DNA of 64,000 nt from a virus (IMGVR_UViG_3300020472_000016:1-64000), one strand, 5' to 3'. Shown: positions 1 through 62,372, counted from the stretch's first letter. The notes: generated from the sequence alone by a model not told the origin. Numbers and translations: made by a program.

Positions 1-813
1 GGTAACCAGGTTATTAACCCAGTTACAGGTCAGATCACTAACGAAGATATTGCTCAACTTAACGTGTTGGGTGAAGAGGACACCACTATTGAGACCTTCT
101 CTGAGTTGGTTCTTACAGATAAACTAACCGTAATTGGTGGTGCATCTAACCAGTTGGAGTCTGTATTCTCTGGTCCTGTTACTTTCCAGAAGAAAGTTAC
201 ATCCCAGAATGAGATACAGTCCCTTAAGTACACATACTCCAACGATGATGGTACTGTTCTGAAGCAGACATTCCTCGCTGAGGAATTAAATGGTCTACCT
301 GACCTTGCTGGAGGACTAGCATTTAATAATGGTGATATTTGTTATAACATTGATTGGACCCCTGGCAATGCTATGGGATGGATATATGATACTGGCACAT
401 GGTATAAGTTTGGTATAAGTGATAGCACACCTATAGTTTCTAACAGATACTCTGGTGTTACACATTATGGTATCGGCATGGCACCTGATGCTTCTAATCG
501 TATGAAGATTAGTGGCAACACATATCTTGATGGTGATTTAGATGTTACTGGAAAGTATGGTTGTGCAGATAAATATACTTTAGCAACTGGTATTGCTAAC
601 AGTAATACTGGTGTCACATATAATGGTAATGGTGCAACTCAGACGTTTAATATTTCGCCTGGACACACTGCATTCTCACTTTTAGTATTCCTAAATGGTG
701 TTGCTCAAGTTCCTGGTGTGGATTATACAGTCACAGGTAATGCTGTTGACTTTAGTATATCTGCTCCACCTGCAACTGGTGACACGATTCAGATCCGTGA
801 ACTTGTTATTTAA
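1..813 (+). CDS. C-terminal part of a large virion structural/tail-fibre-like protein (5' truncated by window)
   Basis: Frame is open from base 1 (GNQVINPVTG...). Ends in the 'LLVFLNGVAQVPGVDYTV.G..V.F..APP' beta domain that also recurs in the giant gp7-like protein. Confidence 0.7.
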   Translation, partial: GNQVINPVTGQITNEDIAQLNVLGEEDTTIETFSELVLTDKLTVIGGASNQLESVFSGPVTFQKKVTSQNEIQSLKYTYSNDDGTVLKQTFLAEELNGLPDLAGGLAFNNGDICYNIDWTPGNAMGWIYDTGTWYKFGISDSTPIVSNRYSGVTHYGIGMAPDASNRMKISGNTYLDGDLDVTGKYGCADKYTLATGIANSNTGVTYNGNGATQTFNISPGHTAFSLLVFLNGVAQVPGVDYTVTGNAVDFSISAPPATGDTIQIRELVI

Positions 814-5499: not shown

Positions 5500-7143
5500 A
5501 TGAAAATTCAGAATGTATTGATTGTAGGTGGTGGAACCTCTGGTTGGTTTACTGCTGCCTCTCTCCTTAAATTATGTCCTCATATTAATGTTTCTTTGAT
5601 TGAGAGTGAAGATCATCCCATCATAGGTGTTGGTGAGTCTACTCTTGGACAAATTAATGACTTTTTCCATCTCCTAGAACTCAATGATGATGAGTGGATG
5701 AGGGAAACAGGGTCAACCTATAAGGTAAATATTAGGTTTAACGATTTTTATAAAGAAGGAGAGACTTGGGACTACCCATTTGGTACATCTCATGAGAGAA
5801 TGTATGAGATGCAACATGGGTGGATGTCATGGTTTGCTCTGAATTATCATAAACCAGAGAAGTTCCACCGAGGTACGTTTGCTACTACCTTTAATAGTGT
5901 GGGACATCTTGCTAAGTACAATAAATTAACTTGGCAGGATAGGGTATGGAACCCACAATCTGATAGTGCATACCATATGGATGCTACTAGAATGGGTCAA
6001 TGGTTTAAGAAGAATAGATGTAAGAGTATAGTTGAGAAGGGTAACTATCATACAGGTACAGTTGTAGGTGCAACCAAGGATGAACATGGGTTCATTAAAA
6101 GTGTTGTTACTGATGATGGTAGGCATTTCGAAGCAGATATGTTTGTAGACTGCACTGGGTTTAAGTCTCTATTATTAGAACAAGAACTAGGTGTACCATT
6201 CCATTCATTCCATGCTAATGATGGTGGTTGTCTATTGTCTGATAGAGCAATTGCTACTCACATGCCACATGCTGAGGATGATGAGAGTCCTGATAGTTAT
6301 AGAAAGAGAGAAGTAATTAACACTACTAACTGTACTGCCATTGAGAATGGATGGACATGGGATGTTCCTCTATGGGATAGAGCAGGTGCAGGGTATGTAC
6401 ACTCTAGTGACTTTGCTACAGTAGAAGAGGCAGAAGGTCAGTTATATAATTATCTTCTTAAGACAAGAGGTAAGAAGAGAGCAGATCAAGCAGAGTTTAA
6501 GACTATTCCATTCAGGAGTGGTAAGCATGAGAAATCATGGTATAAGAATGTATGTGCAGTTGGTCTATCTAATGTGTTTGTAGAACCATTGGAAGCAACT
6601 GGTCTCTTGTGTACTCATGAACAGATTCTTAGATTATGTACTGCATTATCATCACGTGAGGGTCTAATCACTAACTCAGAGAAACAGATGGTTAACCTAG
6701 TTTGTGATCTTGAGATCGAAGGGTTTAAGAACTTTGTTGCATCTCACTATGCATTCACTGCACGTGAGTCACCATACTGGAGAGCAGTGTCTGAAGATAT
6801 TGATTACGACTTTACAACAGGATTTAATGATAACCTCTTTGTTAGGTATGCTAGTGAGAAGTATGTTGCCAATGAAGTCATATATAATGGGCAGACGTTC
6901 GATGATCATAACGATGGTCCTCGTTATGTTGCTGCTGGTATGGGATTTAATCCAATATGTAAGCACACATTGGAACTAAATAAGATACACAACCAAACCA
7001 TGACTGACTTAACACCTGAGTCTATGGATGAGGATGAGAAAAGGATTGACGAATGGAATGAAGAGATGTATAATTACTGCATGAGTATTCCAACATCCTA
7101 CGAGTTCCAGAAAAACACTATTTACAAGGAAGATTATGTCTAA
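5500..7143 (+). CDS. prnA: Flavin-dependent tryptophan halogenase family protein (PrnA-like)
   Basis: GGGTSG FAD motif, GVGEST, catalytic-Lys context TYKVNIRF, DCTGF, WxWxxP (GWTWDVPL), FVEPLEATG. Confidence 0.9.
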   Translation: MKIQNVLIVGGGTSGWFTAASLLKLCPHINVSLIESEDHPIIGVGESTLGQINDFFHLLELNDDEWMRETGSTYKVNIRFNDFYKEGETWDYPFGTSHERMYEMQHGWMSWFALNYHKPEKFHRGTFATTFNSVGHLAKYNKLTWQDRVWNPQSDSAYHMDATRMGQWFKKNRCKSIVEKGNYHTGTVVGATKDEHGFIKSVVTDDGRHFEADMFVDCTGFKSLLLEQELGVPFHSFHANDGGCLLSDRAIATHMPHAEDDESPDSYRKREVINTTNCTAIENGWTWDVPLWDRAGAGYVHSSDFATVEEAEGQLYNYLLKTRGKKRADQAEFKTIPFRSGKHEKSWYKNVCAVGLSNVFVEPLEATGLLCTHEQILRLCTALSSREGLITNSEKQMVNLVCDLEIEGFKNFVASHYAFTARESPYWRAVSEDIDYDFTTGFNDNLFVRYASEKYVANEVIYNGQTFDDHNDGPRYVAAGMGFNPICKHTLELNKIHNQTMTDLTPESMDEDEKRIDEWNEEMYNYCMSIPTSYEFQKNTIYKEDYV

Positions 7144-7618
7144 AGAGAATCCATCACTACCTGATTTCGAAGATTTGCCTGAAGTAGATCAGACTGATAC
7201 AGAATTATCTGAATCTGTTGCTACAGTAGAGAGTGAGAAGGAAGCAATCACATCGTTTGATGATCTCTGGATGAATCTTAGATATCAACACAGAGAGAAG
7301 TTTAAGAAATATGCTGACATGCAGTCATCATTGAGTTCTATGTCATTTGATAGGCAAGAGACTCGTATTGACTTTACTGAACTTAATGAACTCAGAGATG
7401 AGATTGTTAAGTTGGAAGGTGGCATGGAGACCATGAACATCCAACGTAGACTACTACGTAATGAGGATCCAGAACCATGGGTAGAGTCAGAGATCAAGAA
7501 GACAAGGATCAAGGTTAGAACAAACTCACCAAACAGTAAGAAAAAAGGCACGGATGCGTATAAGGAATATACTGAATGGCAAGGTACAGATAATCCAGAC
7601 ATGAATAAAACAGTGTAA
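7136..7618 (+). CDS. Hypothetical coiled-coil protein
   Basis: 160-aa ORF overlapping both neighbours. Confidence 0.6.
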   Translation: MSKENPSLPDFEDLPEVDQTDTELSESVATVESEKEAITSFDDLWMNLRYQHREKFKKYADMQSSLSSMSFDRQETRIDFTELNELRDEIVKLEGGMETMNIQRRLLRNEDPEPWVESEIKKTRIKVRTNSPNSKKKGTDAYKEYTEWQGTDNPDMNKTV

Positions 7619-8292
7619 TGCTCAATCTAGATTATGTGTTCCCTCAACCTATATGGTGGACGGATCTTGATATTGATTTAGAAAAACTACAAGAGATTGT
7701 CTACGACATTGCTAAGTCAATGCCTGGTAAAGGCAGATCTAATCGGGGTGAACTGAACTATCAGTCCCCCGATTTCTATGCTGAGAAGGTAATAGCAGAG
7801 CAAGACGATGAGTTTTCACGTCTGCTTACTTTAATTAAAAAGCATGGTCAAGAGGCATTCGATAGTTATGAGGCACAGGTGACTCATCTTGAGTTCGCTA
7901 ATGTATGGATCAACATTAACAACAAGGGTGGTTACAATGAGACACATACACATCCAGGTGCCTTGATGTCTGGTGCATTTTATGTTAAAGTACCAAAGGA
8001 AGGTGATTCAGGTAGTATTGTATTTCATAGGAACCCAATGGAAGCATATACTATACATTCATTGGGATTGGCAGAGGATATGAGTACAGCAGAGGAACTA
8101 CATACCTTTGCTACATGGACATATCCACCTACAGAGAATAGGTTAGTACTATTTCCTGCATGGATGCCACATGGTGTAAGAGAGAATGAAACTGATGAAG
8201 ATCGTATAAGTATTTCTTTTAATCTCATTCCCAATAGGGAACAACGTAATTTCACTGATATTATTAAGTCTCATGCCAGTAGAGAAAATTGA
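7618..8292 (+). CDS. Fe(II)/2OG oxygenase, TIGR02466-like
   Basis: FPQPI start, WININ...HTHP..MSGAFYV, LFPAWMPHGV, RISISFN. Confidence 0.85.
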   Translation: MLNLDYVFPQPIWWTDLDIDLEKLQEIVYDIAKSMPGKGRSNRGELNYQSPDFYAEKVIAEQDDEFSRLLTLIKKHGQEAFDSYEAQVTHLEFANVWININNKGGYNETHTHPGALMSGAFYVKVPKEGDSGSIVFHRNPMEAYTIHSLGLAEDMSTAEELHTFATWTYPPTENRLVLFPAWMPHGVRENETDEDRISISFNLIPNREQRNFTDIIKSHASREN

Positions 8293-9067
8293 TAACGCAT
8301 ACTATGCCGATAATAATACAGGTGTAGATATAAATGGTGATAGGATCGATGTACATCGTAATTTCCACTCAGTTGGCATGGAAACAGTTAATGTGTTTCC
8401 CACACCAATATGTACAGGGAAAATAGTCCCAACTGACACACAGTACCATGATGCAAATGTATTTTTGGATGGTCTATGGGATGAAGCAAAGCGTGGTGCA
8501 TGGGCAGCAGAGACGGGACTATCAACGGGTGAGTTAGAGCATGGACAAGAATTATATGAGAATCCTGTATTTGATTGGTTGACCATGCCTATGTTGACAG
8601 CAGTCAAGGAATACTGGATCGACGTGGTGCAATATCGTAGGGACTATCACATGTATATTGATAGCATGTGGGCAAACCTTCATGATGAAGGAGACACAAC
8701 GGGTGAGCATTCACATGTTAACGGGTATTGTAAGTCACATGTGTCATGTGTTTATTACTTGACCAAGGGGTCACAGGGTGGTGAGATTTGTTTTAAAAAT
8801 CCATTAGAGTATATTCATAGACTATGCCCACTTGATGCAGCATATGATTCAGTGGACAGACATAGTGGACCAATGTATGACTGGCACATGCTACAACCAA
8901 GACAGTTTGAGTATGTTATATTCCCATCATGGTTACCTCATAAGACTAGACCTAATGGTCCTGATGAACGAATTGCTATCAGTATGAACTTCAGTGGATT
9001 TCCACTCGACCCAACTCACGGTGATTTTGGTCATGTTGATGATTTGGAAGGAGAGCATTGTTCATGA
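8273..9067 (+). CDS. Fe(II)/2OG oxygenase, TIGR02466-like
   Basis: FPTPI, WAN...HSH, SCVYY, IFPSWLPH, RIAISMN. Confidence 0.85.
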   Translation: MPVEKIDNAYYADNNTGVDINGDRIDVHRNFHSVGMETVNVFPTPICTGKIVPTDTQYHDANVFLDGLWDEAKRGAWAAETGLSTGELEHGQELYENPVFDWLTMPMLTAVKEYWIDVVQYRRDYHMYIDSMWANLHDEGDTTGEHSHVNGYCKSHVSCVYYLTKGSQGGEICFKNPLEYIHRLCPLDAAYDSVDRHSGPMYDWHMLQPRQFEYVIFPSWLPHKTRPNGPDERIAISMNFSGFPLDPTHGDFGHVDDLEGEHCS

Positions 9068-11180: not shown

Positions 11181-11661
11181 GGACAACTTCTTAGAGGAGA
11201 CAGATCACAAAGAACTGTTAGCATTGTTGACATCATGGGAGTTCCCATGGTTCTATCAACAGACACTAACTGCTGGTCATGATGATCTACAAGCATTTGG
11301 ATTTAACCATTGGTTAAGTGCTGAGGAACACCCTGCTTATGCGAACCTGGTCACTCAGATGGAATCTGCCCTCGATGCCTGTAAATGTTTGCGTGTTCGT
11401 GCAGACATGACATTATATAATCCTAATGGTTATCAGCATGCATATCATGTAGATTCTGAAGAGGATCACATGGTGTGTATATACTATGTAAATGATAGTG
11501 ATGGTGATACATTAATCAGACAGGATGAATTCCATGAGGTGTGGCATGTACCACCTAGAGCGAACAGACTATTAATATTCCATGGTAAATACTATCACAC
11601 AGGACACTCTCCTGTTAAACATAAGTCAAGGATTCTAATCAATGCTAACTTCACTGTATGA
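11140..11661 (+). CDS. Fe(II)/2OG oxygenase (FPWF type)
   Basis: FPWF, YHVD (HxD), IYYVNDSDGDT, YHTGHSP...RILIN. Confidence 0.85.
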   Translation: MKLPPPSISNLRVEDNFLEETDHKELLALLTSWEFPWFYQQTLTAGHDDLQAFGFNHWLSAEEHPAYANLVTQMESALDACKCLRVRADMTLYNPNGYQHAYHVDSEEDHMVCIYYVNDSDGDTLIRQDEFHEVWHVPPRANRLLIFHGKYYHTGHSPVKHKSRILINANFTV

Positions 11662-11813
11662 ATAGTACAACCTATCACATATACAAGGATGGACAAGTCC
11701 TTGCTCACTCACTTGATGAAGATCAGGTTGAGAAACTCAAAGAACTACTACATATAGAACCTGAGGTAGTTCCAGTCCACGAACCAAATCACGACATCGA
11801 ACCTAGTTACTAA
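11658..11813 (+). CDS. Small hypothetical protein (51 aa, MNSTTYHIYKDG...)
   Basis: Translated by hand; ATGA overlap, fills the gap between genes. Confidence 0.55.
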   Translation: MNSTTYHIYKDGQVLAHSLDEDQVEKLKELLHIEPEVVPVHEPNHDIEPSY

Positions 11814-11818
11814 TTATT

Positions 11819-12445
11819 ATGACTGATTCTAACATTTTATCTGCGAATCTTGAGGATGCAATAGATCATGAAACCTATGGATTATTCATGACTCCAGTAA
11901 CAAAATATGGTATGTCAGAATTCATTGATCCATGTTTAGAATGGTGTAAGAATCAGGATTTTGTTGATGTTGCTGAAAGACAAGTATTATGTCACAATGT
12001 GCAACAAATAGGTGCAAAGAATCAAATACTCCAGGATGTCCCAGGATTAAAGACAGAACTATTAAGAGTAGCAGAGAAACATAACGATTCAGGTTTAAAC
12101 TATGCTACAGGATTTGATGTATCTGATTGTTTCGTAGAGGTTGCACATGCAGGTGCTATCTATGCACCACATGAACATGCTAATTGTTTATTTAGTGGTA
12201 CGTTCTTAATTAACTATGAAGCAGAGAAACATAGTTATCTTAAGTTTAAACGTAATGTGATGAGTCAAATGTATCCTATTATGATGCTACCATTTAAGAA
12301 CATGACAGCATTTAATTTACAGGAAGCAACTATACCTTATAAGAATGGTGATTGTATCATATACCCTGCTAATTTAACTCATGGGTATGAATCAAACATG
12401 ACAGATAACAGGATAGCATTAACATTTAATATTATCCCTGTATGA
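11819..12445 (+). CDS. Fe(II)/2OG oxygenase, TIGR02466-like
   Basis: LFMTPV, PHEHANCLFSG, IYPANLTHG, RIALTFN. Confidence 0.8.
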   Translation: MTDSNILSANLEDAIDHETYGLFMTPVTKYGMSEFIDPCLEWCKNQDFVDVAERQVLCHNVQQIGAKNQILQDVPGLKTELLRVAEKHNDSGLNYATGFDVSDCFVEVAHAGAIYAPHEHANCLFSGTFLINYEAEKHSYLKFKRNVMSQMYPIMMLPFKNMTAFNLQEATIPYKNGDCIIYPANLTHGYESNMTDNRIALTFNIIPV

Positions 12446-45300: not shown

Positions 45301-48300
45301 AGAAGCTAATCCACCTGTTCTTTACTATGTTAAGAAAAATACCCCCGATTTCGTAGATGGAGAAACAGTAACTAACCAAAATGCTGTTAATGGAGTTATA
45401 TCGGGTGAACCTAAGGTTGGGGACGTTGTAGACACTTTAATCATCAACAAAGGTTCTTCATTCTTTGGATTGGTCTTTGAGCGTCTTATTTCACTTTCTA
45501 ACCAGAATGTCATCCTAGATAACATTTCAGAGACTACAATTAGTCCTGTTGAGTTAAACAATGCAGCAAATCGTATTAACGCTGATTTCTTGGATTATGA
45601 AGAAGTTCGTTCTACAGAGATCGAATATAGCGGATTAAGTGGTGGTTCACTTGCCGTTAACGATGTTATCCGTTCTATCAACGTAACTTATGGTAACCCT
45701 GTAACTGACGCACTTAACAGATATAAGGATGCTGCTAGAAGTATAAGAAATAATAGACAAGAAATTATCGATTTTGCAACATCACAGATTGCAATTGACT
45801 ATCCTGGTTTCTACCACACTGGTGACAATCAAATTGCCCAAATGGGTAGATTTAAGGATGCTTATCGTTTAATCCAGAAGAATAAGGAATGGATCATTGC
45901 TAAGTCTTATGATGAGATGATTACTCAATATCCTGGTACTACTATTCCTAGTGCTACTAAGTGTAAGAGAGACCTTGGATATTTCATCGATGCTCTATCC
46001 AGAGACACAGGATGGGGTGGAACAGTCTATACACGTAAATTGTGTAATATGTTCTTCCCAGATGGATCTACCTTCCAATACGTTAATTCTCAAGCTAATG
46101 AGATTAACTATGGTTATGGTAAGGCATATGATCATATGGTCGAAGCACTTACTAACACATTAAGTGGTTCTGAGACAATCGATTCTGTTGCATATACGAA
46201 GTATAATGAACAATCTACAGGCGGTTCTGGTGGATCAGGAATTACTGCTGACCCATCTCCAGGAGATAACTACGGTACTTCTGGTTCTAACGCCACCAAT
46301 AATGGTCCTAATAATTGTGCTGATGTTACAGCAGCACTGAACACTCTTTGGACTAATGTATCAGAGGTAATACTCTCTGCTTCTTTAACTGACCTTATTG
46401 ATCTTTCACAACCTGTTGCACTAACACCATTAGAAACTAAGTGTACTCGTGACACTGGTTACTTCATCGATGCTATTGCTGATGACCTAGATGGTGATGG
46501 TAACTATTATATGGTTGAGTTCACTAAGAAGTTCTTTAATACTGACGGTGTATTCATAGGTCTTCCAGAAACACAGGAAGCAATTACAGCATTTAATGCT
46601 GCTAAGGATCTGTGTAAGAATGCAATGAGAAATATCATGTATGAGCAAACACTTGCTACTGCTGGATATAACCTCAATGATCCTACAACATATTCTGCAC
46701 CTTACTTAAACAGTTCTTCTACTGCCCAATATTACGATCCTAACTACTCTTCAGGTAGTAACCAAGGTGGTACTAATTGTGCAAACGTAGCAACTGCTAT
46801 TGACACATTAGCAAATATTGCAACTACTTCCTTCACAGGTGCTCAATTTACACCATCTGCTGCATCATACACTGCTGCTACTGGTGACTTAATTCTAACA
46901 ATTGGATCACATAGTTTGACAACTGCTGATACCGTTAGGATAGAACCTAATTCATTGACATTCACTTGTGCGATGGACGGCAATACTGCCAATAAGACAT
47001 ATCCTCGTTCTAGTGACCCAACCTACAACCAGCAGATTGCAATTACTGCTGTAGGTGCTACAACTATTACTGTTAACGTCGGTGCATCACCTATTGTTAA
47101 CCACACAGTAACTGGTGCTACTTACGACCCAGTATCAGGTGTCATGGTATTGACCATTGGTGCTCATACTTTAGGAGTTGGGGAAAGTATTAAGATTGCT
47201 ACTGGATCATTAACCTTTAGTTGTGATCAGGGTGGTACTGTTGGAACTGGAACTTATCCTCGTTCTACTGGAGCAAGTACTGGCGACGGTGAGGACTATG
47301 CATACGACACCGCTATAGAAATTACCGCCAAGACTGATACTACAATCACTGTTAACGTTAACGGTGGACAGGGTGCTGTTACTAACACCAATGCACATAC
47401 ATTTGTATCTGCTACACCTAACGGTATACAGAGTGGTGGTAACTATACACACACCTTTGTTTCTGCTGGTACTAACTCAGTATCTGAGGGTGGTGGTCTT
47501 GCATATATTAATTCACTCGCTACTGTTACCGATGGTACTTACGAGGAAGGTGAGAACATAAGGGTTTATAAGTTTGCTTATAAGGATAGAGCTGGACTTG
47601 GATTCTTTACTCCTGGTGATACCATTAAGGGTCATAAGTCTGAAGCAAACTTCTCATGTAAGGGTGCTAACTCTGGATTACGTTGGCTCTATACTAATGC
47701 TCTAACTGGTACATTCCAGAACAGAGAGTATATTACAAATACAAAACTTACAAATGTTGCTGGTGCATCTAACGTTACTGTTACACCAACAAACGCAACC
47801 TATGATGCTGCTACTGGACATTTAACAATAACAGTTGCTGCTCATGGATTCTCTACAGGTAATGAAGTTTCTATTGCTGCAAATGCAATTAGATTTACTT
47901 GTGGTATGGATGCTAATGCTACTCAGCATGATTATCCAAGACTTACTGACCCTGTTGCTAATAATGTTAGATTACCTATCATTAAGACAACAGCAAGTAC
48001 ATTTACTGTAAACGTTGGTTCATCTCCACTTAAGCATTACACACCAACTGGTGTTGATTATCAACCAGATACAGGTGTAATGTCAATTACCATTGGACCT
48101 AACAATCTTAACGTTGGTGAGAAGATTAGATTTAAGCCAGAGTCATTAGTATTCACATGTGACCAAGATGGTAACCAAACAGAGCATGCTTATCCAAGAA
48201 GTTCTGACCCATTCTATAATACTTCATGTAACATTGATGGTATTACATCAAGTACTTACTCAATTACTGGTGCATCATATCTTCCTGCTAAGGGAACTTT

Positions 48301-51300
48301 AAATCTTACCATTGCTAATCATGGATTCTCGAATGGTGAGATGATCAAGATTGCTGATAATTCATTAACCTTCACTTGCACGAACGATAATAATGCTACA
48401 AACCATACTTATCCAAGAACAACTGATCCAGCAAGTTATCAGTGGTTACCTATTTCAGTAGTTGATAATAATACTATTGGTGTTCAGATTGGTGTTTCTA
48501 CTGATATTTCAGTTCACACCTTTGTAAGTGCAACTTCTAATAATATTACGAAACAAGATGGTGGTGTTATCGTTGTTAATGTACTAAACAGTTCTCCTTC
48601 TACTAACACTACTTTACACACCTTTGTACGTGGTGAAGATGCCATTATCACTGGTGGTGACTATGCTCACACCTTTGTAAGTGCAGTATCTAACTCCTTC
48701 ACTGTATATCCAGCGAAGGCAAGATTAACTTCACTCGATAAGCGTAGTGGAAGTAACTCTCTAGTATTAGAATCAAATGCATATCTTACTCATGATCTAT
48801 CTGATGTAAATGCATTTGGTTCTAGCAACTTTACTGTAGAGATGTGGATCAAGGCCAAGGCAGTAACTGGTGGACAGTATTTGTTCGACTTCCGTACAAG
48901 TGGACTTAGTGAGACTGGATCTTTAAGTCTATATCTTGATGGTGGTAGTATCAAACTTGCTTACGATAGTGCTGATGTTATTAGTGGTTCTCATGGAATC
49001 AGTGCTGGTACATGGACTCACGTAGCAGTATCTAAGACTTCTGGTATTACTAAGGTATGGGTTGGTGGTGTTCAGGTTGGAACAGACTACAGTGACAGCA
49101 ACACTTATTATGAAAGAAAGATAACCATTGGTGCTGCTCAAGATGGTGCCAACTTCTATCAAGGTCATATTGATAATTTTATTATTACTAAGGGAGTATC
49201 TAAGTATCAAGCATCATTCACTCCTCCTGTCATCTTTACTACTAATGATGATATATCATTCTCTATGAGTAATGAGCATCCTATCATTATGAGTGATAAG
49301 GATAGTTATGCAACCTTCACTGGTACTACAAACTCTGCTGCTGCAGCCAAGAAGGTCAATTACGCTAATAAAGAAATAATTGTTGAGGATGTTCAGCTCT
49401 CTAGAGATGAGCATCGTAGAGCTGCTGATATGCTCGAACTTAACAGAGCATGGATTGCCGAAACAGCAGTTAATAAGATGAAGGCTAAGTATCCTGACCT
49501 CTTGATGCCAGGTGATACTGCTGATGGTATTGGTCCACAACAGGGTACTACATTCTGTTTAAGGGATACACAAGAGTTTATCCTTAAAGGTATCATAGAT
49601 GATATCCGTTATGGTGGTAACTATAACAGTACAATTGCTGCTAGATCTTACTTAACTGCTTATGAAGGTCTTGAGCATATTGCTAATGAAGTACTTCAGT
49701 CGATTTACACATATAGAGAATTAGCACCTATCTGTAACTATGTTCTAACAACTACAAGTACAGATCTTGAGAACTATGGTGTTGATGGTGATGGTAATCC
49801 TATCAAGTACACTGACATTCTTCGCATACCTAACAACTTCTCTTCACCTATAGCTCAGACTATTCAGGATGAGATTGTAGCACTTGGAGATGAGATTGGT
49901 GACATCATTGGACCTACTGGACAGAGGTTCAGAGATGCTGGTGATATGATCTGGAAGAACCGTGATGTAATTGCAAACGAAGCAGTAGGTTGGTTGGAAG
50001 CAACTTATCAGAAAGATATTAATGGTACTGTTTATGACTTCTATACAAACCCCAATGCGAACGCTAATAAGTGCACCCATGAGATCAAGACTTATATACT
50101 TCCAGCTATCGTTGCTGACTTGGTTACTGGTGGTAATTCTGGAATACGGAACGTTACCGCCAAGTTCCTAAATGCGAATGGCGAACTCTATTCTGTTGAT
50201 AATGAGTTAAGTGCTGTATTGGATGTATATGAGTATGTTGGTAAACTTTGTAAGCATGCAATCAATAACACTCTAGTAACTAAGGGTAGTACTGCTGCTG
50301 AACTTGGTGTACCATCTGAGTATCAAGATGATTATCATGTTAACGAGTATACCGAACTGACTGTATACAGAGATGATACCATTACTATTGACTCTGAAGG
50401 TTACAATGCTTTCAGAACTTCTAACGATAGACTGTTAGATGCTGCAGATATGCTTGAGCGTAATGCTAATGTCATTGCTTGGGAAGCAGTTCATACCATG
50501 AATGATCTATCGAAGTATCTTAACTTCGGTGTTCCTGATGGTGCACAGAATTGTGTAGATGATGTTCTCGATGTATTAGGTGCTGTTGTTCATGATATAA
50601 GAAAAGGTGGTAACTCTAAGACTTGGGATGCTGCTAGTCTCTATCTTAATAAAGAAGATAAGTCTCTTATCCAGTTAAATGGTCGTCAACACACTCATCA
50701 GTATGTAAGATCAGAACTTGACGCTATTTACACTGGTGGTAACTACGATCATACCTTCGTTACTGCTGCTACTAACGCTGTAGTAGATGATGGAAGTAAT
50801 AATTTCACTCCAACTAACGTAGTTTACACTCCTGGAGACGGTAAGTTAGTTATTACCATGCCTAATCATGGATTAGCTACATCAAATACTATTACTATTG
50901 CAGAAGAATCACTAACATTCACCTGCTCAATGGATGAGCATGCTTCGAAGCACAAGTATCCAAGAAAAGGTGACCCTGCATACGGTAAATCTATTGCTAT
51001 TCTTGAGACTACAATCTCCACAATCACTGTTAACGTTGGTGCTTCACCAATAGTTAACTATAATGTCTCCAATGCTGACTATAACGCAGTAACTGGTGAT
51101 CTAACAATGAACGTTGGTGCTCATACATTGCAACCTGGTACTTCTATTAGGTTCAGAGATGGTGCTTTAACCTTCAGTTGTGATAGAGATGACTATGCTA
51201 CAGAGCATTCTTATCCTCGTATTAGTGATCCTGTATATAATACCTCTGTAAATGTCTCTAGTGTTGGTACAACCACATCTACACCTACCGATGCATCATA

Positions 51301-54300
51301 CGATACATCAACAGGTATTGTAACGATCACTCAGAATGGTCATGGATTCACTGGTGAGACTACAGCAAGTACTTCTGATGCTGCTTACAATCCTAATACT
51401 GGTATAATGACCATTACATCCAATGGTCATGGATTTGCTGCTGGTGATAGCGTTAAGATTGCTGGAAATTCACTAACATTCACATGTGGTTTTGACGGTG
51501 ACCTCTCTAACCACACATATCCAAGGTCAACTGACCCTGCATACAATTCTTGGTTACCTGTACTTAACGTAACTACAAATACATTTGATGTTCAGGTACT
51601 AAAAGAGATTCCATCTACTAATGTTACCGTTCATACCTTCGTTTCTGCTACTGCTAGTAACATAACCAAGGCAAATGACTATGTAATGATCGATGAGAAT
51701 GCATTATCAATGAGTTGTGATACTGGATCTGGTGCTCAGACTAAGACTTATCCAAGACCACAGGATCCTGCATACAAAGCATGGTTACCAATATCAAATG
51801 TACAGTTAAACACCTTTGATATACAAGTATTATCAACAGTACCATCTACAAATACAAATGCTCATACATTTGTGTCATTTGCATCTAATGGACTGTCTAG
51901 ACAGACTGGTAATATTACAGTTAATGTCGGTGTAGCACCTGGCGAAGACGCTGCTGCTATTAGTGTTCTTAAACTTGCTACTGAGATGGCAATAATGACC
52001 ATGCGTAATGCATTTGGTCGTGAGAATCTCTATATCTTCGACCCAGAACCTGACCCTGACGGTGATACTACACCTGCAGGTGGTGATGAGTCTATTGATA
52101 ACGTTGATGTTGAGTCTTATGAGCGTAATGCTGTTAAGGATAGGTTCATTAACGCTGCTGATCTCATCGAAAGAAACATTCGTTTGATTGCTGAAGAGTC
52201 TATTGCTGCTGCTTTAGTACAATATCCTTCACTCAACATTCCTGGTGGTAACATCAACTGTGTTCATGACTTAACTGACTTCTTGGATTCTATGGTTTGG
52301 AACCTCCGTCATGGTGGTAACAACAAGGTCTTCCATGCTGCTGAATACTATGTCAATGAAGGTCTGACACATAACACTGAAGCAACTTGGATCACTAATT
52401 ACGCCAGAGATCTCGCCATCCAGGTGATGAGGAACGAATCTCTTGCACTTAACTATGGTAGAGACCCTGCATTTGATACTGCTGTACCTATTGTATCTGT
52501 TGCCTCTACTCAACACACTGCTACTGATGCTTCTTACGATGCTGGTACTGGTTTACTGACTTTAACAGTAGCTGGTCATGGTTTTGCAGAGGGTAATAGA
52601 GTCAATATTGCTGACAATTCATTGACATTTACCTGCTCAATGGACGGAAATTACAGTAATCACACCTATCCTAGACTCTCTGATCCTGTAAGTAACCAGT
52701 GGTTACCAATTATTTCTACATCTACTGACACATTCACAGTCAATGTTGGAGTATCAAGGATCAAGAAATTTACTCCCACAGCAATTAGTTACGAGCCGAA
52801 CACTGGTAACCTCATAATGACTGTGGGAGTTCACGACCTTGCGGTTGGAACTAACCTAAAAATCGAACCTAATTCACTCACATTTACTTGTGCAATGGAT
52901 AATGGTGCTACTAATCACACCTATCCAAGAATTACTGACCCAGTACATGACGAGCCAATTGAGATCGTAGGTGTAACTGAAACTACTGTTACTGTTAACG
53001 TTGGTACTACTGGCATCACAAACTTTGATATACATGATGCTGAGTTTAATCCTACTAGTGGTCAACTTGATATCAATATTGGTGCTCACACCTTTAGAGA
53101 AGGAGAGAGTGTTAAGTTAGGTACTAATGCATTAACCTTTACTTGTGCAATGGACAGTCATGCGACTGACCATGCATATCCTCGTGCTTCTGGTCCTGGT
53201 GGTCCTGATGCAGGATATAATACTTCCATATCAATCGATAAGATTGGTTTAGACACCTATGATATAACCAATGCTGGATATAATCCAACAACAGGTGTTA
53301 TGACAGTGACTATTCCTAGTCATGGATTTAAAGGAAGAACTACTCATACTCCAACTGGTGTAGAATACACACCTGCAACTGGTAAGATGATTATCAGTCT
53401 TGCTAATCATGGATTCCAGAATGATGACAGAGTTAAGATTGGTCAAAATGGTTTAGTATTCACATGTGGTATGGATGGACATACAACCAACCATGCTTAT
53501 CCTAGAAATTATAATTCTTCTGCTCCTGGTGGAGAAGACTATGCATATGACAAGTGGTTACACGTTACTAATGTAACTCAGAACACATTTGAGGTTAACG
53601 TTGGTGTATCTTCTAATCAGACTGAGCATACATTTGTCAATTCAGTAACTAACTGTTTGACTCATGCTGGTGATCACGTTAAGGTCTGCACTAAGGCTAT
53701 TGGATTTAAGTGTACTAAGGATGGTAACTCCACTACTCACTCATATCCAAGACAGTCCGACCCATCATATGATGAGTGGTTACCTGTTACTAACGCAGGC
53801 ACAGATACATTTGACATCTTTGTTGGATTCTCTGGTCCTAATGACAACTATACTCACACCTTTGCTGCTAATACTGATTTAACACCTACTAACGCTGCTT
53901 ACGATCCTAATAGTGGTAAGATGACTCTTACCGTTAACGATCACGGTATGCAGAATGGTGATACCATTTGGATCGAAGACGGTGCTGTAACCTTTAGATG
54001 TGGTGAAGATAGTCAGAGTTCAGACCACGCATATCCAAGAAATATTACTGATACATTTACTATCACTGGTGCAACATATGATGCTGCTGCTGGTGTTATG
54101 GAATGTACTGTTGCCAACCATGGATTTGGTAATGGTGCGATGGTTAAGTTTGCACCTGGGTCTATCAAGTTCACTTGCTCGATGGATAATTATGATACTA
54201 CTCATGCTTATCCAAGACATGACGATCCTATCGCTGACAAGTGGATTCCTGTATTTAATGTAGAGACAAATACTTTCCAAGTTCGTGTTGGACAATCAAT

Positions 54301-57300
54301 AGAGAAGCAATGGACTCCTAGTGCTGCTGCTTACTCACCAACAACAGGTGTTATGGATCTGACTATTGGTGCTCATAATTTCCGTGCTGGTGCATCATTA
54401 ACACCTTCTAACGCTGACTATAACCCAACATCAGGTATCATGAGATTGACCATTGCTGGTCATAACATTGCTGAAGGTGAGCATATTAAGATTGCTGATA
54501 ATGCACTGACATTCACATGTACATTAGATGGTGGTAGTGCACAGAAGACATATCCAAGACCTTCTACTATTAGTCACACAGCAACTACTGGTACTACACA
54601 TGATCCTTCTACAGGTATCTTACATATCAATACTACGTCTGCACATGACCTAACCAATGGAGATTGGGTTAAGTTTGCTGACAACTCCTTGACATTTACT
54701 TGTGGTTTAGATGGAGATCAAACCAACCATTCTTATCCTAGGGCAGATGACCCAATGAGCGGTAAGTGGGTACAGATTTCTAATGCTACTGCTAGTGGAT
54801 TTGATGTACAAGTTCTAAACTCAATACCTCAGTCTAATACTTCTACTCACGTATTCGTATCTGCTACATCTAATGGTATCCAAACTAGAGACCCCTTCAG
54901 TGGTCGTTGGATGGAAGTTAGAGAAGTTGGTACAGATTGGATTGATGTTAAAGTTCTAACTACTGCACCTTCTACTAATACTAATCCACACACCTTCATA
55001 AGTGCTGCTGCTAATTGTATCCAGACATCTGGTGACTCTGTAAGAATCTCTGCAAACTCTATTACCTTCACATGTAATAAGGACAGCAATGCTACTCAGC
55101 ACACATACCCAAGAGCAGCAATGAATGCTGCTGGTGGTGCTGACCCAGTATATAACGGTGCTGCTAAGATTGTTGCTGTTACTGATACTACTATCAGTGT
55201 ATGGGTTGGTACTTCTGCTAACACTACATCGCACTCCTTTGTTTCTGCTGCTGCTAATGCAGTTAGATCTGGTGGTACATATACACACAACTTTGCATCT
55301 GCTGATGCTAATGGTCTTTCACAACAACGTGACTGGGCACATAACAACTACATTCCAATTTCCGATGTAACTACTAACACATTTAGTGTACAGTTACTAC
55401 AGAAGATTCCTTCTACTAATACTACTACACACGTATTCCAGTCTGCTGCTTCTAATAGCATTCATAGAGGTGTTATACAGAAACAAAATGGATGGATCCA
55501 ACTTAATGTTGGTACTTCATCTAATACTTCATGGCATGGATTTAAGTTCGCTGATTCTGGTGCTCTGATAAGTGGTGGTTACTATGATCACTCATTTATA
55601 TCTGCATCTACAGGTGCTGTACATACAGGTGGTGACTATATTCACGACTTTGTATCTGCTGTCACTAATGGTATTACCAGACAGAATCCTTCAGGTATAG
55701 TAACACTTGATATTGGTGCTTCTGGACCTAATGATCAGTATACTCATACCTTCGTATCTGCTGCTAACGGCGCATTGATTACTGGTGGTAACTATGCTCA
55801 CAAGTTTGTATCTGCTACAGACCGTGCATTGGTAAGTGGTGGTAATTATGAGCACACATTTGTATCTGCTGCATCTAACTCAGTTAATGTAACTGGTGGA
55901 TCTCAGTTAACTCCAACTAATGCTGCTTATGATCCTCTAACTGGTCATCTAACATTGACCTTTGGTTCTGCTCATGGGTTGACTGCTAACATCAATACAG
56001 TCACAATTGATAACAACGCAATACAGTTCTCTTGTGAATTTGATGGTAATTCATCCACTCATGGATATCCAAGATCAACTGATCCTGCTTCGGGTACAAC
56101 TTTAACTATAATTTCTAACACAACAGATACTATTACTGTTAATATTGGATCCACTCCTGAGGTTAACTTTAACGTAACCGACGCTACCTATGATGCTGGT
56201 ACAGGTAACCTAACACTTGATATTGGGTCTAATAGTCTACAAGGTCCTACACTTGGTTTAACACCTACTGATGCCGCTTACAACCCCACTACAGGTATCA
56301 TTACACTTACTATCAACGGTCATGGATTCGCTAACGGTGAATACATTAAGATTGCTGATAATGGATTAACTTTCACTTGTACTCAAGGTGGTGGCAACCA
56401 CTCATATCCAAGAGTTACTGACCCTGCATCTGGTAAGTGGTTAACAATTTCTAATGTACAGACAAATACATTTGATGTACAGGTATTAGATACAGTTCCT
56501 TCCACCAACACAACAACTCATACACTGGTTAGCATTGCTAATGGTTGCGTTGATAAGGCAGGTGAATCTGTCATGGTTAGACCTAATTCTTTGACCTTCA
56601 CATGTCAACAGGATAACTACTCTACTAACCATACATATCCTCGTGCTAAGGATCCATCATTCGATAGACCTATTCCTATTGTTGGTAAGTCTGGTCAGAC
56701 TATTACTATCGATGTTGGTAACTCTGCCATCGTTACATATACTCCAACAAATGCAACATATGATGCTGCAACTGGATATCTAGCAGTAACAATTGGTGCA
56801 CACGGATTGTCAACAGGAACTACTGTTAAGTTGGCACCTAACTCCTTTACATTCACATGTACAAGAGACGGCAATACTGCTCAGAAGACATATCCTAGAG
56901 GTGGTCATACCTTCGCTCAGAAGTTCTATGCTGATCTTGACTTCTATCCTTACAATCAAGGTGAATATGTAATCACTGCTGATACTGCTAATCCTAAGTG
57001 TGCTGACGTAGCATCTGCTATTACATCCTTGATGGGTCTGTATACTGATGCTATTGCTACACCTGCAAGTCTAACTGACGGTACTATTAGTAAGACTCTA
57101 CCAAATATTTGGCCAGTTAAGTACGCTTCAGAAATGGTAATGCGTGATGTTAGTGTCACCTTCGATCAGAATGGTGCTACTACTGGTGATTGGAATACTA
57201 CTTGTGTTGGTGTTGCAGATAAGATCGAAGGATTGATGGATATTGTCATCAATACTATAGAACTTGCATCTGGTGGTGGTGGTAGTCACTTAGATGCTGT

Positions 57301-60300
57301 AGAACGTGAAGTTCCATGGAGATTTAACAACAACTATCAGTTCTATACATGCTATAACGTAACATCAGCAACTGACACACTCTTTGATGTATTGTTAAGT
57401 ACTCTTGGTGGTGGTTCTAAATCTGATAAGCATTGTGCACGTCACATACTCTTTAATTATCATGCTATTACTGCTAAGGCATTTGAGAGAACTCAAAATA
57501 ACCATCCAGATACTACAGCAGATATAACATTTGCTGAGAATATGGTAAAGGCTTTGATGTACGACCTGAATACAGGTGGTAACCAAGGTATGCTGAAGTT
57601 AGCTAACTCTTGGTTCGATGGTGAAGGTAACTTCATAGCATTCGGGAATATCGTTAGACAGCACTTACTCTTCTATGTTACACGTATACGTGAGTATGTT
57701 AAACGTGGTTTATATGACTACAACAATGATACACAGTGGGCAGGATATGATCTATATCTAGAACCATCCAATACTGCTGCTATTAATAATAGATTTGAGT
57801 ATGAGAAGGAATCTACAGAATTTACAATTGATAGTTCTATCAACCTTGCATTCCATGCACTGAATAGATCTCAAGCACCTTCCACTAATAAGATTGATTA
57901 TATCAATAGTGATAATATCACTAACATGACTAATGTATATGATGAAGGTGAAGATTATAATACTGATCCAGAATTGATCCTATTGACTCCAACTATTGAG
58001 GTTGGATTTGAGAGAAGAGAGAACACTGTAACAGTACATAAACCTAACTTCTTCTCACGTGGTGATGTCCTTGCATACGTTCCTGCTTCTCAGGATTTGG
58101 ATCCTAATTTACAGGATCAGGAATACTATTATGTCCTTAATGCTGAGGCAGATTACTTCGAAGTTACTCGTGAGAAGCGTCATGATGCAAGATATAGACA
58201 GTTTGCATTCGATCAATCTTTAAAAGGTCAGCAAAGATTGCAGACAGTTGTACGTACTGGTATCAATATGCCAGCAATGGTTTCACCTGTAAGGGATAAC
58301 GCTCAACCAATTAGTGCTGGATTTAACACTGCTGATTATCTAGTTGGATCTACTTCTAATGCTTCTTCTGAGGTTGTTCGTACAATGAACAATGAAGCAG
58401 ATATCATTAAACTCTATAAGAAGTTTAATATAGACGCAGCAACTGGTAGGTTTACTAATGGTGAGACCATACAAGTACAGGGTGCAACAGCTAATAACGG
58501 TATTGTTGTTCAGACTTCTGCGTTAACAGGTGATCAGAGCAATGAAGGGTGGATATATGTTGAGGATATGAATGGAACATTCTCTGATAATGATGTATTA
58601 GAGGGTGTAACTAGTGGAATCACTAATGCTGTTAATGGTACTAGTGTTGAGCGTATGCTAATTAACACCTCTAGAGGTGCATTTAAGCAAGATGAGAAGA
58701 TCTTTAACAAAGGTAATAGTGCTGAGGCAGACATCGTTAAGTATGAAAACTCTGCTGGTGCTCTTGTAGGTAACAGTGGTGGACGTATTACTATCGATAT
58801 CGAAACTATCCAAGATGACTTTACTGATGGTGACGTTATCTATGGTTCTATAACTGATAAGATCCTTGATATAGCATATATCACTGCTACTGGATTCGAA
58901 GAACTAACTCTTAACCAGTACGTACATGCAGAATCTCAGGTAGAATGTGATGTAAATAACATCATTCGTGATGGTGGATATGCAGGAAACTTTACTGCTG
59001 GTGATGTAGTTTATCTCCTCGCAGGTACTACCATTAAGCAACCAGGATTCACTGCTGTTGTCACTAAGTATCAAGCATTTGATGATAGTGTTACTCCTAA
59101 CATCCCACATAAGATTTGGATTGCAAACCTCAGACCATATGGAACTAACTCTCAAGGTGAGGTAGTTACACCTGATCCTCAGGAGTTAGCCTCTGGTGGT
59201 ACTGCAATTGGTAAGTTTGAGAACCTCAATAACTTCCCAATTATCCTCGCTGAGATGAGTAGTGTAACAGTCACTAACTACAATTCTTACGGTAGGGTTT
59301 CTGGTAAGGATATTACTGGTGACACAGGTAGGATTTGGTTGGAAGATGTTGTAGGAGATTTCCCAAGCAATATCACAATTAAGTCTGATGCTGGTTGGTA
59401 CGCTGGTGTTACTCAATCTAAGGGTCTAGTTGGACGTTGTAACAGATTCTTTAGAGGATTTGATGGTACACAAACATCCTTTAAACTTACTACAAATAAC
59501 GGAGAAGCATACTTCCCAGATCCTGCTGGACACCTATTGGTATTCACTAATGGTGTTCTACAACCTCCAGGTGGTACACAAGCATACACAGCATTCTCTG
59601 ATCAGATTCAGTTCACTGAACCTCCAACAATCGGTTCTGAGTTCATCGGATACTACGTTGGTAAACTTAGACAGTTGGATGATATCAGCTTTGAGTTTGA
59701 CTCGTTACGTTCATCCTTTAACCTCAGGTACGCTGGTGGATTCTACTCCTTGACACTGACTGAAGGTGTTTCTTCTAGCACTATACTTCCAGAAAACAAC
59801 ATTGTTGTTTCTCTGAATGGTGTTATTCAGGAACCTGGAGTTGGTTATGAACTGGTTGGTTCACGTATCATCTTCGCTGAAGTTCCTCGTGCGGGATCAA
59901 CATTCGTTGCATTCTCCTATATTGGTTCTGACGCAGACGTTATTGCTGCTACAGTCGTACCTCCAATTGAGGCAGGAGACTTATTACAAATTGATGGAGA
60001 AGGAGAGAATCGTGAAGTTGCTCTAATTGAGTCTTCTAACTCTTTGATTACCTTCGAGTACACAGGAACTGTTAAGGGTCGTGGTGCTGCAGCACTTGCT
60101 CAGATAACCTCTGGTGAAATGACAACAGCAATTATCACCTCTCCTGGTGATGGTTACTCTTCACGTCCAAACGTTGATGTTATATCATCTTCTGGATTTG
60201 ATGGTCGTGTTCGTGCTCTAATGGGTCTCTTGAGGATTGATGTTAAGACTGCTGGTGTTGGTTACGCTCAACCACAAGTTGCAATCCACAACGTTGTTGA

Positions 60301-60773: not shown

Positions 60774-62372
60774 ATGGCTGCCACGTCATCATACAACGCA
60801 GGAACAAAAATGCTCACAGTGGATGGGGATGGACTCCCCGATCCAGTGTTGTATGGTACGTTCCCTAATAACGACAATCCTAATGCTGTAACAGAGCAGG
60901 ATTTTGAGCATACTTTCTATTTTAGAGGTGGTTCATTTGGTACTGCTCGTACATTTGATACTCCTTCATTCACACAGAATGGTTATCTTGTAGATGTACC
61001 TTTGTCTACAGCAGACAATGATTTGTTAGGTGTTGAGATCCAAGTAGGGGACAGGATTCTGTTTGTTTTTGATAAGCAAACTGCTAATGAGAAGAAGCAA
61101 GTATTTGTGTATAGAGGAACTAGTCAAACTGTTACTCCTGGTGAGTTTTGGAGAGAGACATCAAATAATCTTGAGTTAGTTGTAGACTATAGTAGAAGTA
61201 ATCATACTGGTACTCTAGAATATTTTGATCAAAGAAATGCTAGATCAAATGTACCTTTAGGTATTGTTGGTGTTACTGCTAATGGTGTAGCAATCTTTAA
61301 TCCTAGTGCTGGAGCAGGTGGTAACCCACCAACAGGATTTCAGTGGAATGCACATTATGAAGACTCTCCTGTAGATTTTGGAGATGATTCATGTGGTGGA
61401 CACCCAGAGAATACAGGACAGTATCACTATCACGACACACATTTCCTAGAGTGTTGGCAGAATAATGCTGTGATGGCAGGATATAATGATTACTATGGTT
61501 CTAGTCAGTTTAATGGTGATAATTTAAGACATCCAGACGGTCATTCTAAGATAATTGGTGTTTCGTTTGATGGTTTCCCTGTATATGGACCGTATATTTA
61601 CTCTAATCCATGGGACAATTCATCATCTAAAATTTTAGCAAGTAGTTCATATAGAGTTAGATCCGAAGAAGCACCAGGTAGACCTACTTACGGTAATACT
61701 ACTGCCAACCCTCCTGCTGGATCATTGATGCAGGATTGGGAATATGCAGAAGGTACTGGTGTTCTTGATTTCCATAATGGAAGATTCTGTGTAACACCAG
61801 AATATCCTACAGGAACATATGCATACTTCTTAGCAACTGAAGAAGGTAATGAAGGTGCATTAGATCCACAGTTCCCTTATATGATGGGAACTACTTCTCG
61901 TGAAACTCTCAATAAACCAGCCAATGATGGTGCTGCTGCACCTCCAGGAGACGGTGGTGATGGAGGAGGAGAGGCTCCACCTGCTACTATTCTGATTGGT
62001 GCACAACCACAGAATGCTACTGTTGCTCAAAGTACAACAGCTACATTTACGATTACTGCCTCTATCAGTCCTGAGGATGGACCTAAGACTTATCAATGGT
62101 ACAGATCTACAGACGGTGGATATTCATTCGCTGTTCTTACAGGATCTACTGCTAATAGTCTTACCTTCACTGCGTTGTCATATATGTCTGGATACAAATT
62201 CAGATGTGTAATTGAGGGACCAATCGGTGCACCTGCTGCACAGAACTCTCCTCTAACAACTGACGTTGCTACTCTCACCGTAACTGGTGGAGGCGGTGGT
62301 CAGCAAGCAGAGAACTTCGATGGTACTAATGCTACCTTCGATACTACTGGTATCACCTTCGATGCCACCTAA
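60774..62372 (+). CDS. YHYH-domain virion protein with C-terminal Ig-like domain
   Basis: G...NGV.IFNP, D.CGGHP...GQYHYH, HS.IIG...DGFPVYGP, NGRFCVTPEYP.GTYAYF; QPQN.TV...YQWY...FRCV. Confidence 0.85.
   Translation: MAATSSYNAGTKMLTVDGDGLPDPVLYGTFPNNDNPNAVTEQDFEHTFYFRGGSFGTARTFDTPSFTQNGYLVDVPLSTADNDLLGVEIQVGDRILFVFDKQTANEKKQVFVYRGTSQTVTPGEFWRETSNNLELVVDYSRSNHTGTLEYFDQRNARSNVPLGIVGVTANGVAIFNPSAGAGGNPPTGFQWNAHYEDSPVDFGDDSCGGHPENTGQYHYHDTHFLECWQNNAVMAGYNDYYGSSQFNGDNLRHPDGHSKIIGVSFDGFPVYGPYIYSNPWDNSSSKILASSSYRVRSEEAPGRPTYGNTTANPPAGSLMQDWEYAEGTGVLDFHNGRFCVTPEYPTGTYAYFLATEEGNEGALDPQFPYMMGTTSRETLNKPANDGAAAPPGDGGDGGGEAPPATILIGAQPQNATVAQSTTATFTITASISPEDGPKTYQWYRSTDGGYSFAVLTGSTANSLTFTALSYMSGYKFRCVIEGPIGAPAAQNSPLTTDVATLTVTGGGGGQQAENFDGTNATFDTTGITFDAT

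Follow-up and report, generated by a model that had tools for sequence, protein, structure and literature searches.

What architecture underlies a protein in which copies of one small domain break off, time after time, where another copy begins? This question is raised by a viral stretch of 64,000 nucleotides (IMGVR_UViG_3300020472_000016:1-64000; hereafter the window, meaning this whole stretch). A single open reading frame (ORF) in the window encodes a protein of 9152 amino acids (aa), and between aa ~4513 and 7870, entirely within this ORF, it carries 23 copies of a ~100-residue beta unit. The region probably forms loop-anchored projections of a giant baseplate protein at the gp7 position, built by recursive nested insertion of one small beta-barrel. 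An earlier interpretation by a model (the sequence-only reading) had proposed growth by nested domain insertion. The features quoted in it are all present where it placed them, and its proposal is largely supported along three independent lines, namely complementary break points in a profile hidden Markov model (HMM), comparison with orthologues and concentric aligned ranges in two AlphaFold2 models. The ORF is as follows, and residue r begins at nucleotide (nt) 33302+3(r-1).

33302 to 60760, + strand: giant ORF, 9152 aa; gp7-position giant baseplate or virion structural protein (ORF list and translation, PHROG, Pfam, gene order)

The unit can be divided into sub-elements that follow one another along the HMM. 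Element a is an N-terminal hairpin (TPT.A.YD..TG.L.ITV..HGF, HMM positions 1-25). Element b1 is the core (G..V.I...L.FTC..D...H.YPR..DP, positions 25-55), b2 is a second hairpin (WLPI.NV..NTFDVQVL, positions 55-82), and c is a closing strand (PSTNT..HTFVSA..N, positions 83-101) with a variant, c', that reads GGNY.HTFVSA. About 23 repeats with the core FTC..D...H.YPR..DP had been anticipated, and 23 were found, 22 of the FTC...YPR cores by regular expression and one as an SMSC variant at aa 6137. There are likewise 23 N-terminal hairpins; 22 HTFVSA-type closing strands score in the HMM, and one divergent copy (HTHQYVRSE) is located at aa 5797. The units are distributed as two in aa 4517-4726, three in aa 4828-5132, four in aa 5794-6213 and 14 in aa 6400-7868, and 16 of the 23 are discontinuous. 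No family in Pfam or NCBIfam covers the unit, and a phmmer search of four units against the PDB sequences returned nothing at E <= 1.

The six units without an interruption in the window served to build an HMM, which was then used to search the protein. In a stack parser, each match starting at HMM position 1 opened a unit, and later fragments had to resume the unit topmost on the stack. The features obtained from this parse, together with alignments to relatives among 57 IMG/VR loci (numbered with the prefix L), are listed below.

46850 to 47479 (aa 4517-4726), + strand: block 1, two units (HMM parse)
47783 to 48697 (aa 4828-5132), + strand: block 2, three units, three deep, (79 (74 O 66) 84) (HMM parse, L001-L011)
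50399 to 50680, + strand: helical repeat 5, part before the insert, ending '...SLIQLNG' (aligned with contiguous L028, L037, L048 and L049)
50681 to 51940 (aa 5794-6213), + strand: block 3, four units in helical repeat 5 (parse, alignment, AlphaFold2 model 1)
51941 to 52087, + strand: helical repeat 5, resumed, beginning GEDAAAISVLKL / GEDAAAISVLKLATEMAIMTMRN (aligns with GEEEASQWVMKFAQEMCILTMRN, contiguous in L028-type orthologues)
52109 to 52498, + strand: helical repeat 6, part before the insert (contiguous, without beta units, in L049)
52499 to 55672 (aa 6400-7457), + strand: block 4a, ten units U1-U10 in one balanced bracket, depth 8 (stack parse)
53861 to 55435, + strand: U6-U10 subtree, 525 aa (parse strings, alignment with in-phase indel)
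55508 to 55879 (aa 7403-7526), + strand: closing-strand pile, six consecutive 18-aa strands (c-element HMM, parse, model 2 range ends)
55691 to 56905 (aa 7464-7868), + strand: block 4b, four units U11-U14, permuted, closers first (parse)
56906 to 57106, + strand: helical repeat 6, resumed, 'GGHTFAQKFYADLDF...KCADVASAITSL' (contiguous with the first part in L049)

Interrupted units appeared as partial HMM matches whose coordinates are complementary around complete matches. For example, aa 5994-6018 (HMM positions 1-25) and 6124-6199 (25-100) flank 6023-6123 (1-101), and aa 6655-6677 (2-24) and 6789-6858 (25-95) flank 6683-6788 (1-101). Deeper nests follow the same rule, as in the series 7005-7031 (1-27), 7034-7087 (1-54), 7094-7195 (1-101), 7195-7242 (54-101) and 7243-7323 (25-101), while aa 6861-6915 (1-55) is resumed only at aa 7341-7389 (53-101). 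The coordinates at which an opener stops and its continuation starts agree closely (25/25, 24/25, 54/54, 27/25, 55/53 and others), and a full-length match (1-101) lies at the centre of every nest. Two interruptions singled out in the sequence-only reading were found at these places: HGFTGETTA gives way to STSDAAYNP at aa 6018/6023 (HMM position 25), and YPRNITD gives way to TFTITGATYD at aa 6915/6918 (position 55).

The parse recovered the bracket-like nesting of opening and closing half-units that this reading predicted. The segment aa 6406-7456 closes fully, with 0 orphans, 0 units left open and a depth of 8, as the tree U1>U2>U3>{U4>U5, U6>U7>U8>U9>U10}. In block 1, an outer unit runs up to HMM position 85 before it is interrupted by one contiguous unit, after which a GGNY.HTFVSA strand completes it. 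What is inserted is thus a complete domain or a balanced set of domains, as the full central matches and the lack of orphans indicate. Break points in the window and the related loci fall in four places only (HMM positions 20-29, 50-59, 65-74 and 75-89). When the 23 units were reassembled from their parsed parts, each filled 74-101 of the 101 HMM columns, so the HMM coordinates and the reassembled columns agree that complementary halves make one complete domain; C40 and YPR are present in 23 of the 23 reassembled units, H89 in 22 and H21 in 21. In a shuffle test on the window, 14 continuations were matched compared to a mean of 6.7, and 4 of 20,000 shuffles reached 14. With the window and the 57 related loci taken together, 204 were matched compared to 123 +/- 8 when continuations were shuffled among slots, and 0 of 500 shuffles reached 204, a count that is not a probability because the loci are related to each other. 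A branched rather than linear appendage had also been suggested. This holds in part, since the tree is mostly a linear chain of beads but includes three forks, in which U3 carries U4 and U6, B3U2 carries B3U1 and B3U3, and U12 carries U11 and U13.

A different account of the same repeats would be that the units are colinear, the truncated ones being degenerate or partial domains and the tandem GG.Y.H.FVSA 18-mers forming a separate beta domain of their own, for instance a small solenoid or sheet. The strict 18-aa tandem of six closers at aa 7403-7526 is what such a domain would look like, but the break points of openers and continuations are complementary, and single closers occur deep in the nest at precisely the points required by the parse, as at aa 7320-7337 directly after U8 closes. 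Moreover, c' has the invariant His and the HTFVSA motif, like the c strand of contiguous barrels. Taken with the structural predictions described below, the colinear account appears very unlikely.

The closing strands accumulate at aa 7311-7526 (nt 55232-55879), and the sequence-only reading had interpreted a pile at ~55.2-55.9 kb as the missing closing strands of units opened earlier. The tandem pile is present, and the first three of its six strands close the preceding U3, U2 and U1. The last three (aa 7474-7526), together with a b2-beta strand, were assigned to U14, U12 and U11, which follow them, because the nest at aa 7464-7868 is circularly permuted; for these three strands the interpretation did not hold. 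The sequence GGHTFAQKF at aa 7868 is native helical-domain sequence and not a closing strand, as comparison with L049 showed.

In both block 3 and aa 7464-7868, units are left open after their openers, and the right number of closing strands is found ahead of them. The order in block 3 is c, c', [a b1 b2], a b1 b2-alpha, [a [full unit] b1 b2 c], b2-beta. Because blocks 3 and 4b are hosted in helical domains that are contiguous elsewhere, each must be self-contained, and self-contained inserts with closers first were therefore parsed as circularly permuted nests. The reassembled units of block 4b fill 74-99 of the 101 HMM columns. An automated parse in which the two open units of block 3 were closed by the strands at aa 7474-7507 was rejected. 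Orthologues show that blocks 3 and 4 were inserted separately, each into a helical domain of its own that is contiguous elsewhere, and block 3 starts with two closing strands of its own; the model 1 ranges 121..224 and 106..522 also speak against this parse.

The permuted blocks show that closers need not come after openers, which would also suit completion in trans. According to this explanation, opening halves in an oligomeric fibre are completed by the closers of a neighbouring chain (domain swapping), and the bracket order reflects register. Intertwined trimers are indeed common among phage fibre proteins. Against this, the helical domains whose loops hold the inserts look monomeric and are uninterrupted in orthologues, so that each insert must return to its starting point. 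Inner split units, moreover, were modelled as intrachain barrels (model 2 251..466 and model 1 301..512) with a predicted local distance difference test (pLDDT) of 80-92. The low confidence of the outermost closers in the monomer model tells in the other direction. Overall, completion in trans is considered unlikely.

Comparison with relatives provided evidence of a different kind, as hosts that are uninterrupted at the same sites were found for helical repeats 5 and 6, and a lineage was found in which a whole balanced subtree is absent. First, helical repeat 5 had been described as split after SLIQLNG and resumed about 1.25 kb later. In the window, SLIQLNG ends at nt 50680 and GEDAAAISVLKL starts at nt 51941, 1260 nt on, whereas the repeat is contiguous in L028, L037, L048 and L049 ('...LLHVEGEEEASQWVMKFAQEMCILTMRN...'); in the window, SLIQLNG and GEDAAAISVLKLATEMAIMTMRN are separated by 420 aa. 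Second, helical repeat 6 does finish only after ~4.4 kb, with KCADVASAI starting at nt 56996, while L049 has the repeat whole ('...VMQNDTITVAGSHGYTQKFYADLDF...TCADVRSAM') where the window has 1,469 aa. The proposed insertion into helical domains thus stands for repeats 5 and 6, but not for blocks 1 and 2, which lie between repeats. Third, the U6-U10 subtree is present in the window and in L001, L002 and L004, but L006, L007, L008, L010 and L011 (66-69% identity) are without aa ~6854-7378, that is, the whole balanced subtree of 525 aa. In the alignment, the borders of this indel fall at equivalent positions of two c elements, and phase is therefore kept. Homologous recombination was considered, and no DNA repeat was found at the 525-aa indel borders, where the longest shared word is 8 nt. 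The architecture of block 2 is shared with L001-L011, and further nest patterns with the same complementary break points, e.g., (55 O 55) and (25 O 25), occur in other loci. Insertion has clearly happened repeatedly and at several sites, as judged from these sequences.

These comparisons also bear on whether the pattern could be an assembly or frame artefact of repetitive DNA. The protein-level repetitiveness of the region is high, but pairwise identity among units is only ~45-63%, the longest DNA word shared at the tested junctions is 8 nt, and the frame is open for 27.5 kb. In addition, L001, L002 and L004, which are independent metagenome contigs of ~90% identity, have an architecture identical to that of the window. 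The chance of an artefact is thus practically negligible.

Loops of the same helical domain differ in occupancy among relatives. In L028 (~11500-12000), L037 and L048, one contiguous unit is found in a different loop of repeat 6, between YPSL.I.GG and CVHD.TD, where the window has nothing, and loops of one helical domain have therefore been colonised independently. The more distant L012-L019 give more complex parse strings (e.g., L016, L017 and L019) with many (55 O 55), (25 O 25) and (18 O 18) patterns. These loci may hold deeper or differently permuted nests, although the parser depths of 12-18 obtained for them are unreliable because many units were left open.

Three-dimensional evidence was drawn from AlphaFold2 models and from the ranges over which VIA-align aligned them to single-domain PDB chains. 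Model 1 (m43e5e86a2c11) covers window aa 5690-6265 and was based on an alignment of 29 rows; its pLDDT is 70-93 in the beta part and < 50 in the helical part. Among the small six-stranded barrels matched by the contiguous unit (329..435) at Z 6-8.3 are the UBA1 FCCH domain, that of phi92 endosialidase and FNR-type FAD-binding domains. These FNR-type barrels were matched a second time by 301..512, a span in which no more than 67-73 residues are aligned and which corresponds to the surrounding split unit. For PilZ-type barrels, the aligned ranges are 121..224, comprising c'+a+b1+b2, and 106..522, which represents the outermost unit with c at one end and b2-beta at the other. Two unusually long strands (293-304 and 509-519) are present where the b2 hairpin is split. 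The c' strand is placed beside its unit at pLDDT ~85, a further point against an independent domain of closing strands.

The U6-U10 subtree of the window has only three close homologues for alignment, and model 2 was taken from the compact five-level nest of an orthologue (L007 aa 4045-4580) in place of the 1,058-aa nest of the window. It comprises U1-U5 and the closing pile but not the U6 subtree. Its concentric ranges, five in number (279..392, 251..466, 172..502, 86-92..517-519 and 1-5..536), were aligned to the same barrel fold at Z 4.8-8.0 with 62-87 aligned residues each. They had been predicted from the parse before the result was collected, and the ends at 502, 519 and 536 match the parse of the closing pile, which does not suit the colinear account. 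The modelling of nested segments proposed in the sequence-only reading thus gave ranges in agreement with nesting, with low confidence for the outer closers. For the unit itself, superposition on FNR-type or EF-Tu domain 2-like barrels gave Z 5.6-8.3, a root-mean-square deviation (rmsd) of 2.1-3.4 A and 73-84 aligned residues; Z values under 8 may reflect merely a common arrangement, and this is a possible likeness of fold without a sequence match to any such family. A Foldseek search of the whole 576-residue model against the PDB returned only meaningless multi-domain matches with a template modelling (TM) value of ~0.08.

Several points weigh against the nested-insertion reading. The agreement between halves and a single fold is given by where the structural alignments begin and end, at Z values that are only middling (4.8-8.3), and the outer closers have pLDDT below 50, the three modelled strands of the pile reaching only 27-47 in model 2, a value that would also suit the colinear account. 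The models cover only the block 3 region and U1-U5 with the closing pile, and model 2 comes from an orthologue that is 61% identical and not from the window. The parser tolerance was 12 HMM positions, and many closers are interchangeable. Depending on the oligomeric state, barrels could also be completed in trans. Finally, the function and the metal discussed below are proposals based on sequence and context.

If nested insertion is correct, new units would lodge at four permissive places in a barrel, following a, following b1, within the turn of b2 or ahead of c. The chain would run outward via the opening parts of successive barrels, pass through a contiguous tip barrel and return via the closing parts; in the permuted nests, it would run outward through the c strands and back through a-b1-b2. 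Each barrel would be tied to its parent by two short linkers, and both ends of any insert would reunite. Because each insert returns to its start, a chain of barrels could grow from a loop of a barrel or of a helical domain and leave the host unbroken. Compared to a beads-on-a-string tandem array, two linkers per barrel should stiffen the projection. Lineages would gain and lose balanced subtrees. From the context, the most likely role of the projections is that of a variable baseplate appendage for host contact, and such an appendage may be semi-rigid and either adhesive or reach-extending.

The parent and child units expected to be alike after recent self-insertion are not mutual nearest paralogues. 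The highest similarity (0.53-0.63 identity) was found between units that hold an equal nest rank in different blocks and not between parent and child, and whole nested modules therefore seem to have been duplicated. Recent self-insertion of units is not indicated by these sequence comparisons.

Conserved Cys and His residues in each unit had been suggested as possible metal sites. Among 166 distinct contiguous units, H21 is conserved in 98%, C40 in 100% and H89 in 100%, compared to 63% for H49. The triad is spread over three sub-elements (H21 in a, C40 in b1 and H89 in c), so that its residues come from exactly the three pieces that insertions separate. A conserved ligand set of this kind is as expected for a structural metal (e.g., Zn) site, and residue conservation is consistent with the metal-site idea. 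It is plausible that this near-invariant His-Cys-His triad acts as a staple between the three separable sub-elements, and a metal may be involved. No HxH motif was found in the repeated strands, as the closing consensus H-T-F-V-S-A has one invariant His, and position +2 is Phe or Tyr in 94% of units. Natural variants that bear on the His-Cys-His idea are present in the window: unit B3U3 (aa 6137-6139, nt ~51710) has SMSC for FTC and Lys for His at HMM position 49, and the hairpin His is replaced by Asn in two units (aa ~4934 and ~7644).

Among published systems, the closest analogue found is Si3 of cyanobacterial RNA polymerase beta', in which eight sandwich-barrel hybrid motif (SBHM) domains are inserted in the trigger loop, the chain "folds over itself" and does not form a simple tandem, and distant sequence segments combine into four of the eight domains (PMC10895346). 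Like the blocks described here, Si3 is a long, elongated array in which one small beta domain is repeated within a host-domain loop, and its ends come back to the insertion point (PMC10895346). The two differ in several respects. First, the fold is SBHM there and an FNR/EF-Tu-d2-like barrel here, by VIA-align matches. Second, four domains are discontinuous there, compared to 16 of 23 and a depth of 8 here. Third, Si3 belongs to a cellular enzyme and the present protein is a putative virion protein. As far as the available part of that report goes, no comparable gain or loss of subtrees among lineages and no circularly permuted sub-nests are described for Si3 (PMC10895346). The principle of nesting is thus already known from the Si3 precedent. 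No SBHM-containing chain was present among the 50 matches of either VIA-align list, an absence that does not exclude this family.

The top VIA-align match of the unit is the phi92 endosialidase (4hiz_A), at Z 7.6-8.0, rmsd 2.1-2.4 A and 82-83 aligned residues. Phage endosialidases, which are tail proteins, carry this barrel as a domain inserted in the beta-propeller. There, insertion is at a single level and parent and insert have unrelated folds, whereas here the same domain is recursively inserted into itself. Domain insertion in general is usually one or two levels deep and takes place between unrelated folds. In T4, the long tail fibre gp37 forms an intertwined trimer that has iron sites of the HxH type; its fold-back tip shares with the present region a chain that runs out to a tip and back, proximal parts made from both segments, and conserved His residues. 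In contrast, the closers here have a single His (H.F) and no HxH, and the units are modelled as monomeric barrels.

No earlier description of nesting in these cyanophage proteins was found in the literature searched, the coverage of which did not extend to subscription journals. What appears to be new is the depth of 8, the discontinuity of 16 of 23 units, self-insertion at four sites, the permuted forms and the plasticity among lineages in a putative virion protein. Some orthologues have no insert, some have one contiguous unit and others have deep trees, and together they provide a natural series for studying the folding of discontinuous domains and insertion-tolerant loops. The region also shows how a projection may grow from an internal loop without disturbing its host domain. 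For phage biology, it is a hypervariable, lineage-specific part of the baseplate in abundant ocean cyanophages and a candidate determinant of adsorption or host range. For annotation, it serves as a warning, as standard domain callers see nothing in it and colinear repeat finders would mis-parse it. A wider proposal, which is possible but decidedly tentative, is that proteins of marine T4-like cyanophages grow in a grammar-like manner, with recursive self-insertion, including permuted forms, giving tree-shaped, doubly tethered appendages whose branches are swapped, gained and lost to tune host contact and are held by a His-Cys-His metal staple. If true, no nested-domain architecture described from nature so far would be deeper, and the receptor-recognition structures of phages would be built and varied by a new principle.

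By its family matches and neighbouring baseplate genes, the ORF is a giant gp7-position protein of the baseplate module of a T4-like cyanomyophage. It matches PHROG 701, 2885 and 5342 (annotated as virion structural, baseplate wedge and tail fiber), and its baseplate wedge matches are PHROG 2885 (E = 0) and PHROG 708. Pfam Baseplate_wedge (PF23786) scores 27.1 bits, at the threshold of 27, and further Pfam matches are YHYH, two of Laminin_G_3 and, weakly, Phycobilisome. The gene order is PAAR, gp25-like (phrog_261), gp6-like (phrog_219), the giant ORF, a structural protein and a wedge-fibre connector, and every large ORF of the window is on the + strand. Like T4 gp7 and its cyanophage homologues, the ORF follows gp25-like and gp6-like genes, matches baseplate-wedge PHROGs and, at cut-off, Pfam Baseplate_wedge, and has relatives named gp7. 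It differs from T4 gp7 in being about nine times longer, on the basis of the known length of T4 gp7, and in a nested-barrel and helical region without a Pfam or NCBIfam family except one Laminin_G_3 match and weak phycobiliprotein matches. The protein is a putative virion component at the wedge, relatives being annotated as "structural protein" or "gp7". The unit was found in 317 phage records, all of marine Synechococcus or Prochlorococcus phages, under the gene names gp7, baseplate wedge, structural and tail fiber. Of the isolates in the phage collection, Cyanophage P-RSM6 is the nearest, with 72% nt identity across 1 kb.

The helical hosts occupy window positions ~45700-52500 and 56900-58200 (e.g., aa 4190-4516, 5360-5793, 6214-6399 and 7869-8300) and look globin- or phycobiliprotein-like. 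Pfam Phycobilisome scores 27.1 bits in sum (cut-off 22.2) with no single stretch significant, and the NCBIfam CpeA match is weak. In model 1, the helical part, although modelled at low confidence, was matched to chains of allophycocyanin, phycoerythrin, photocobilin and globin sensors at Z 5.5-7.1, and these alignments span the insert (model residues 4..554). The motif KC.RD.GYFIDA is present in the first two helical repeats.

Between blocks 1 and 2, at window positions 47480-47782 (aa 4727-4827), lies a ~100-aa segment of another kind ('...YKFAYKDRAGLGFFTPGD...NFSCKG...') that has no family match, and a Laminin_G_3 domain comes after block 2 (48700-49300). The gene that follows the giant ORF (60774-62372, 532 aa) has a ~120-aa segment in common with aa ~1420-1545 of the giant protein (the YHYH region), as detected via PHROGs 701, 2885 and 2576, and modules thus appear to be exchanged between neighbouring baseplate genes.

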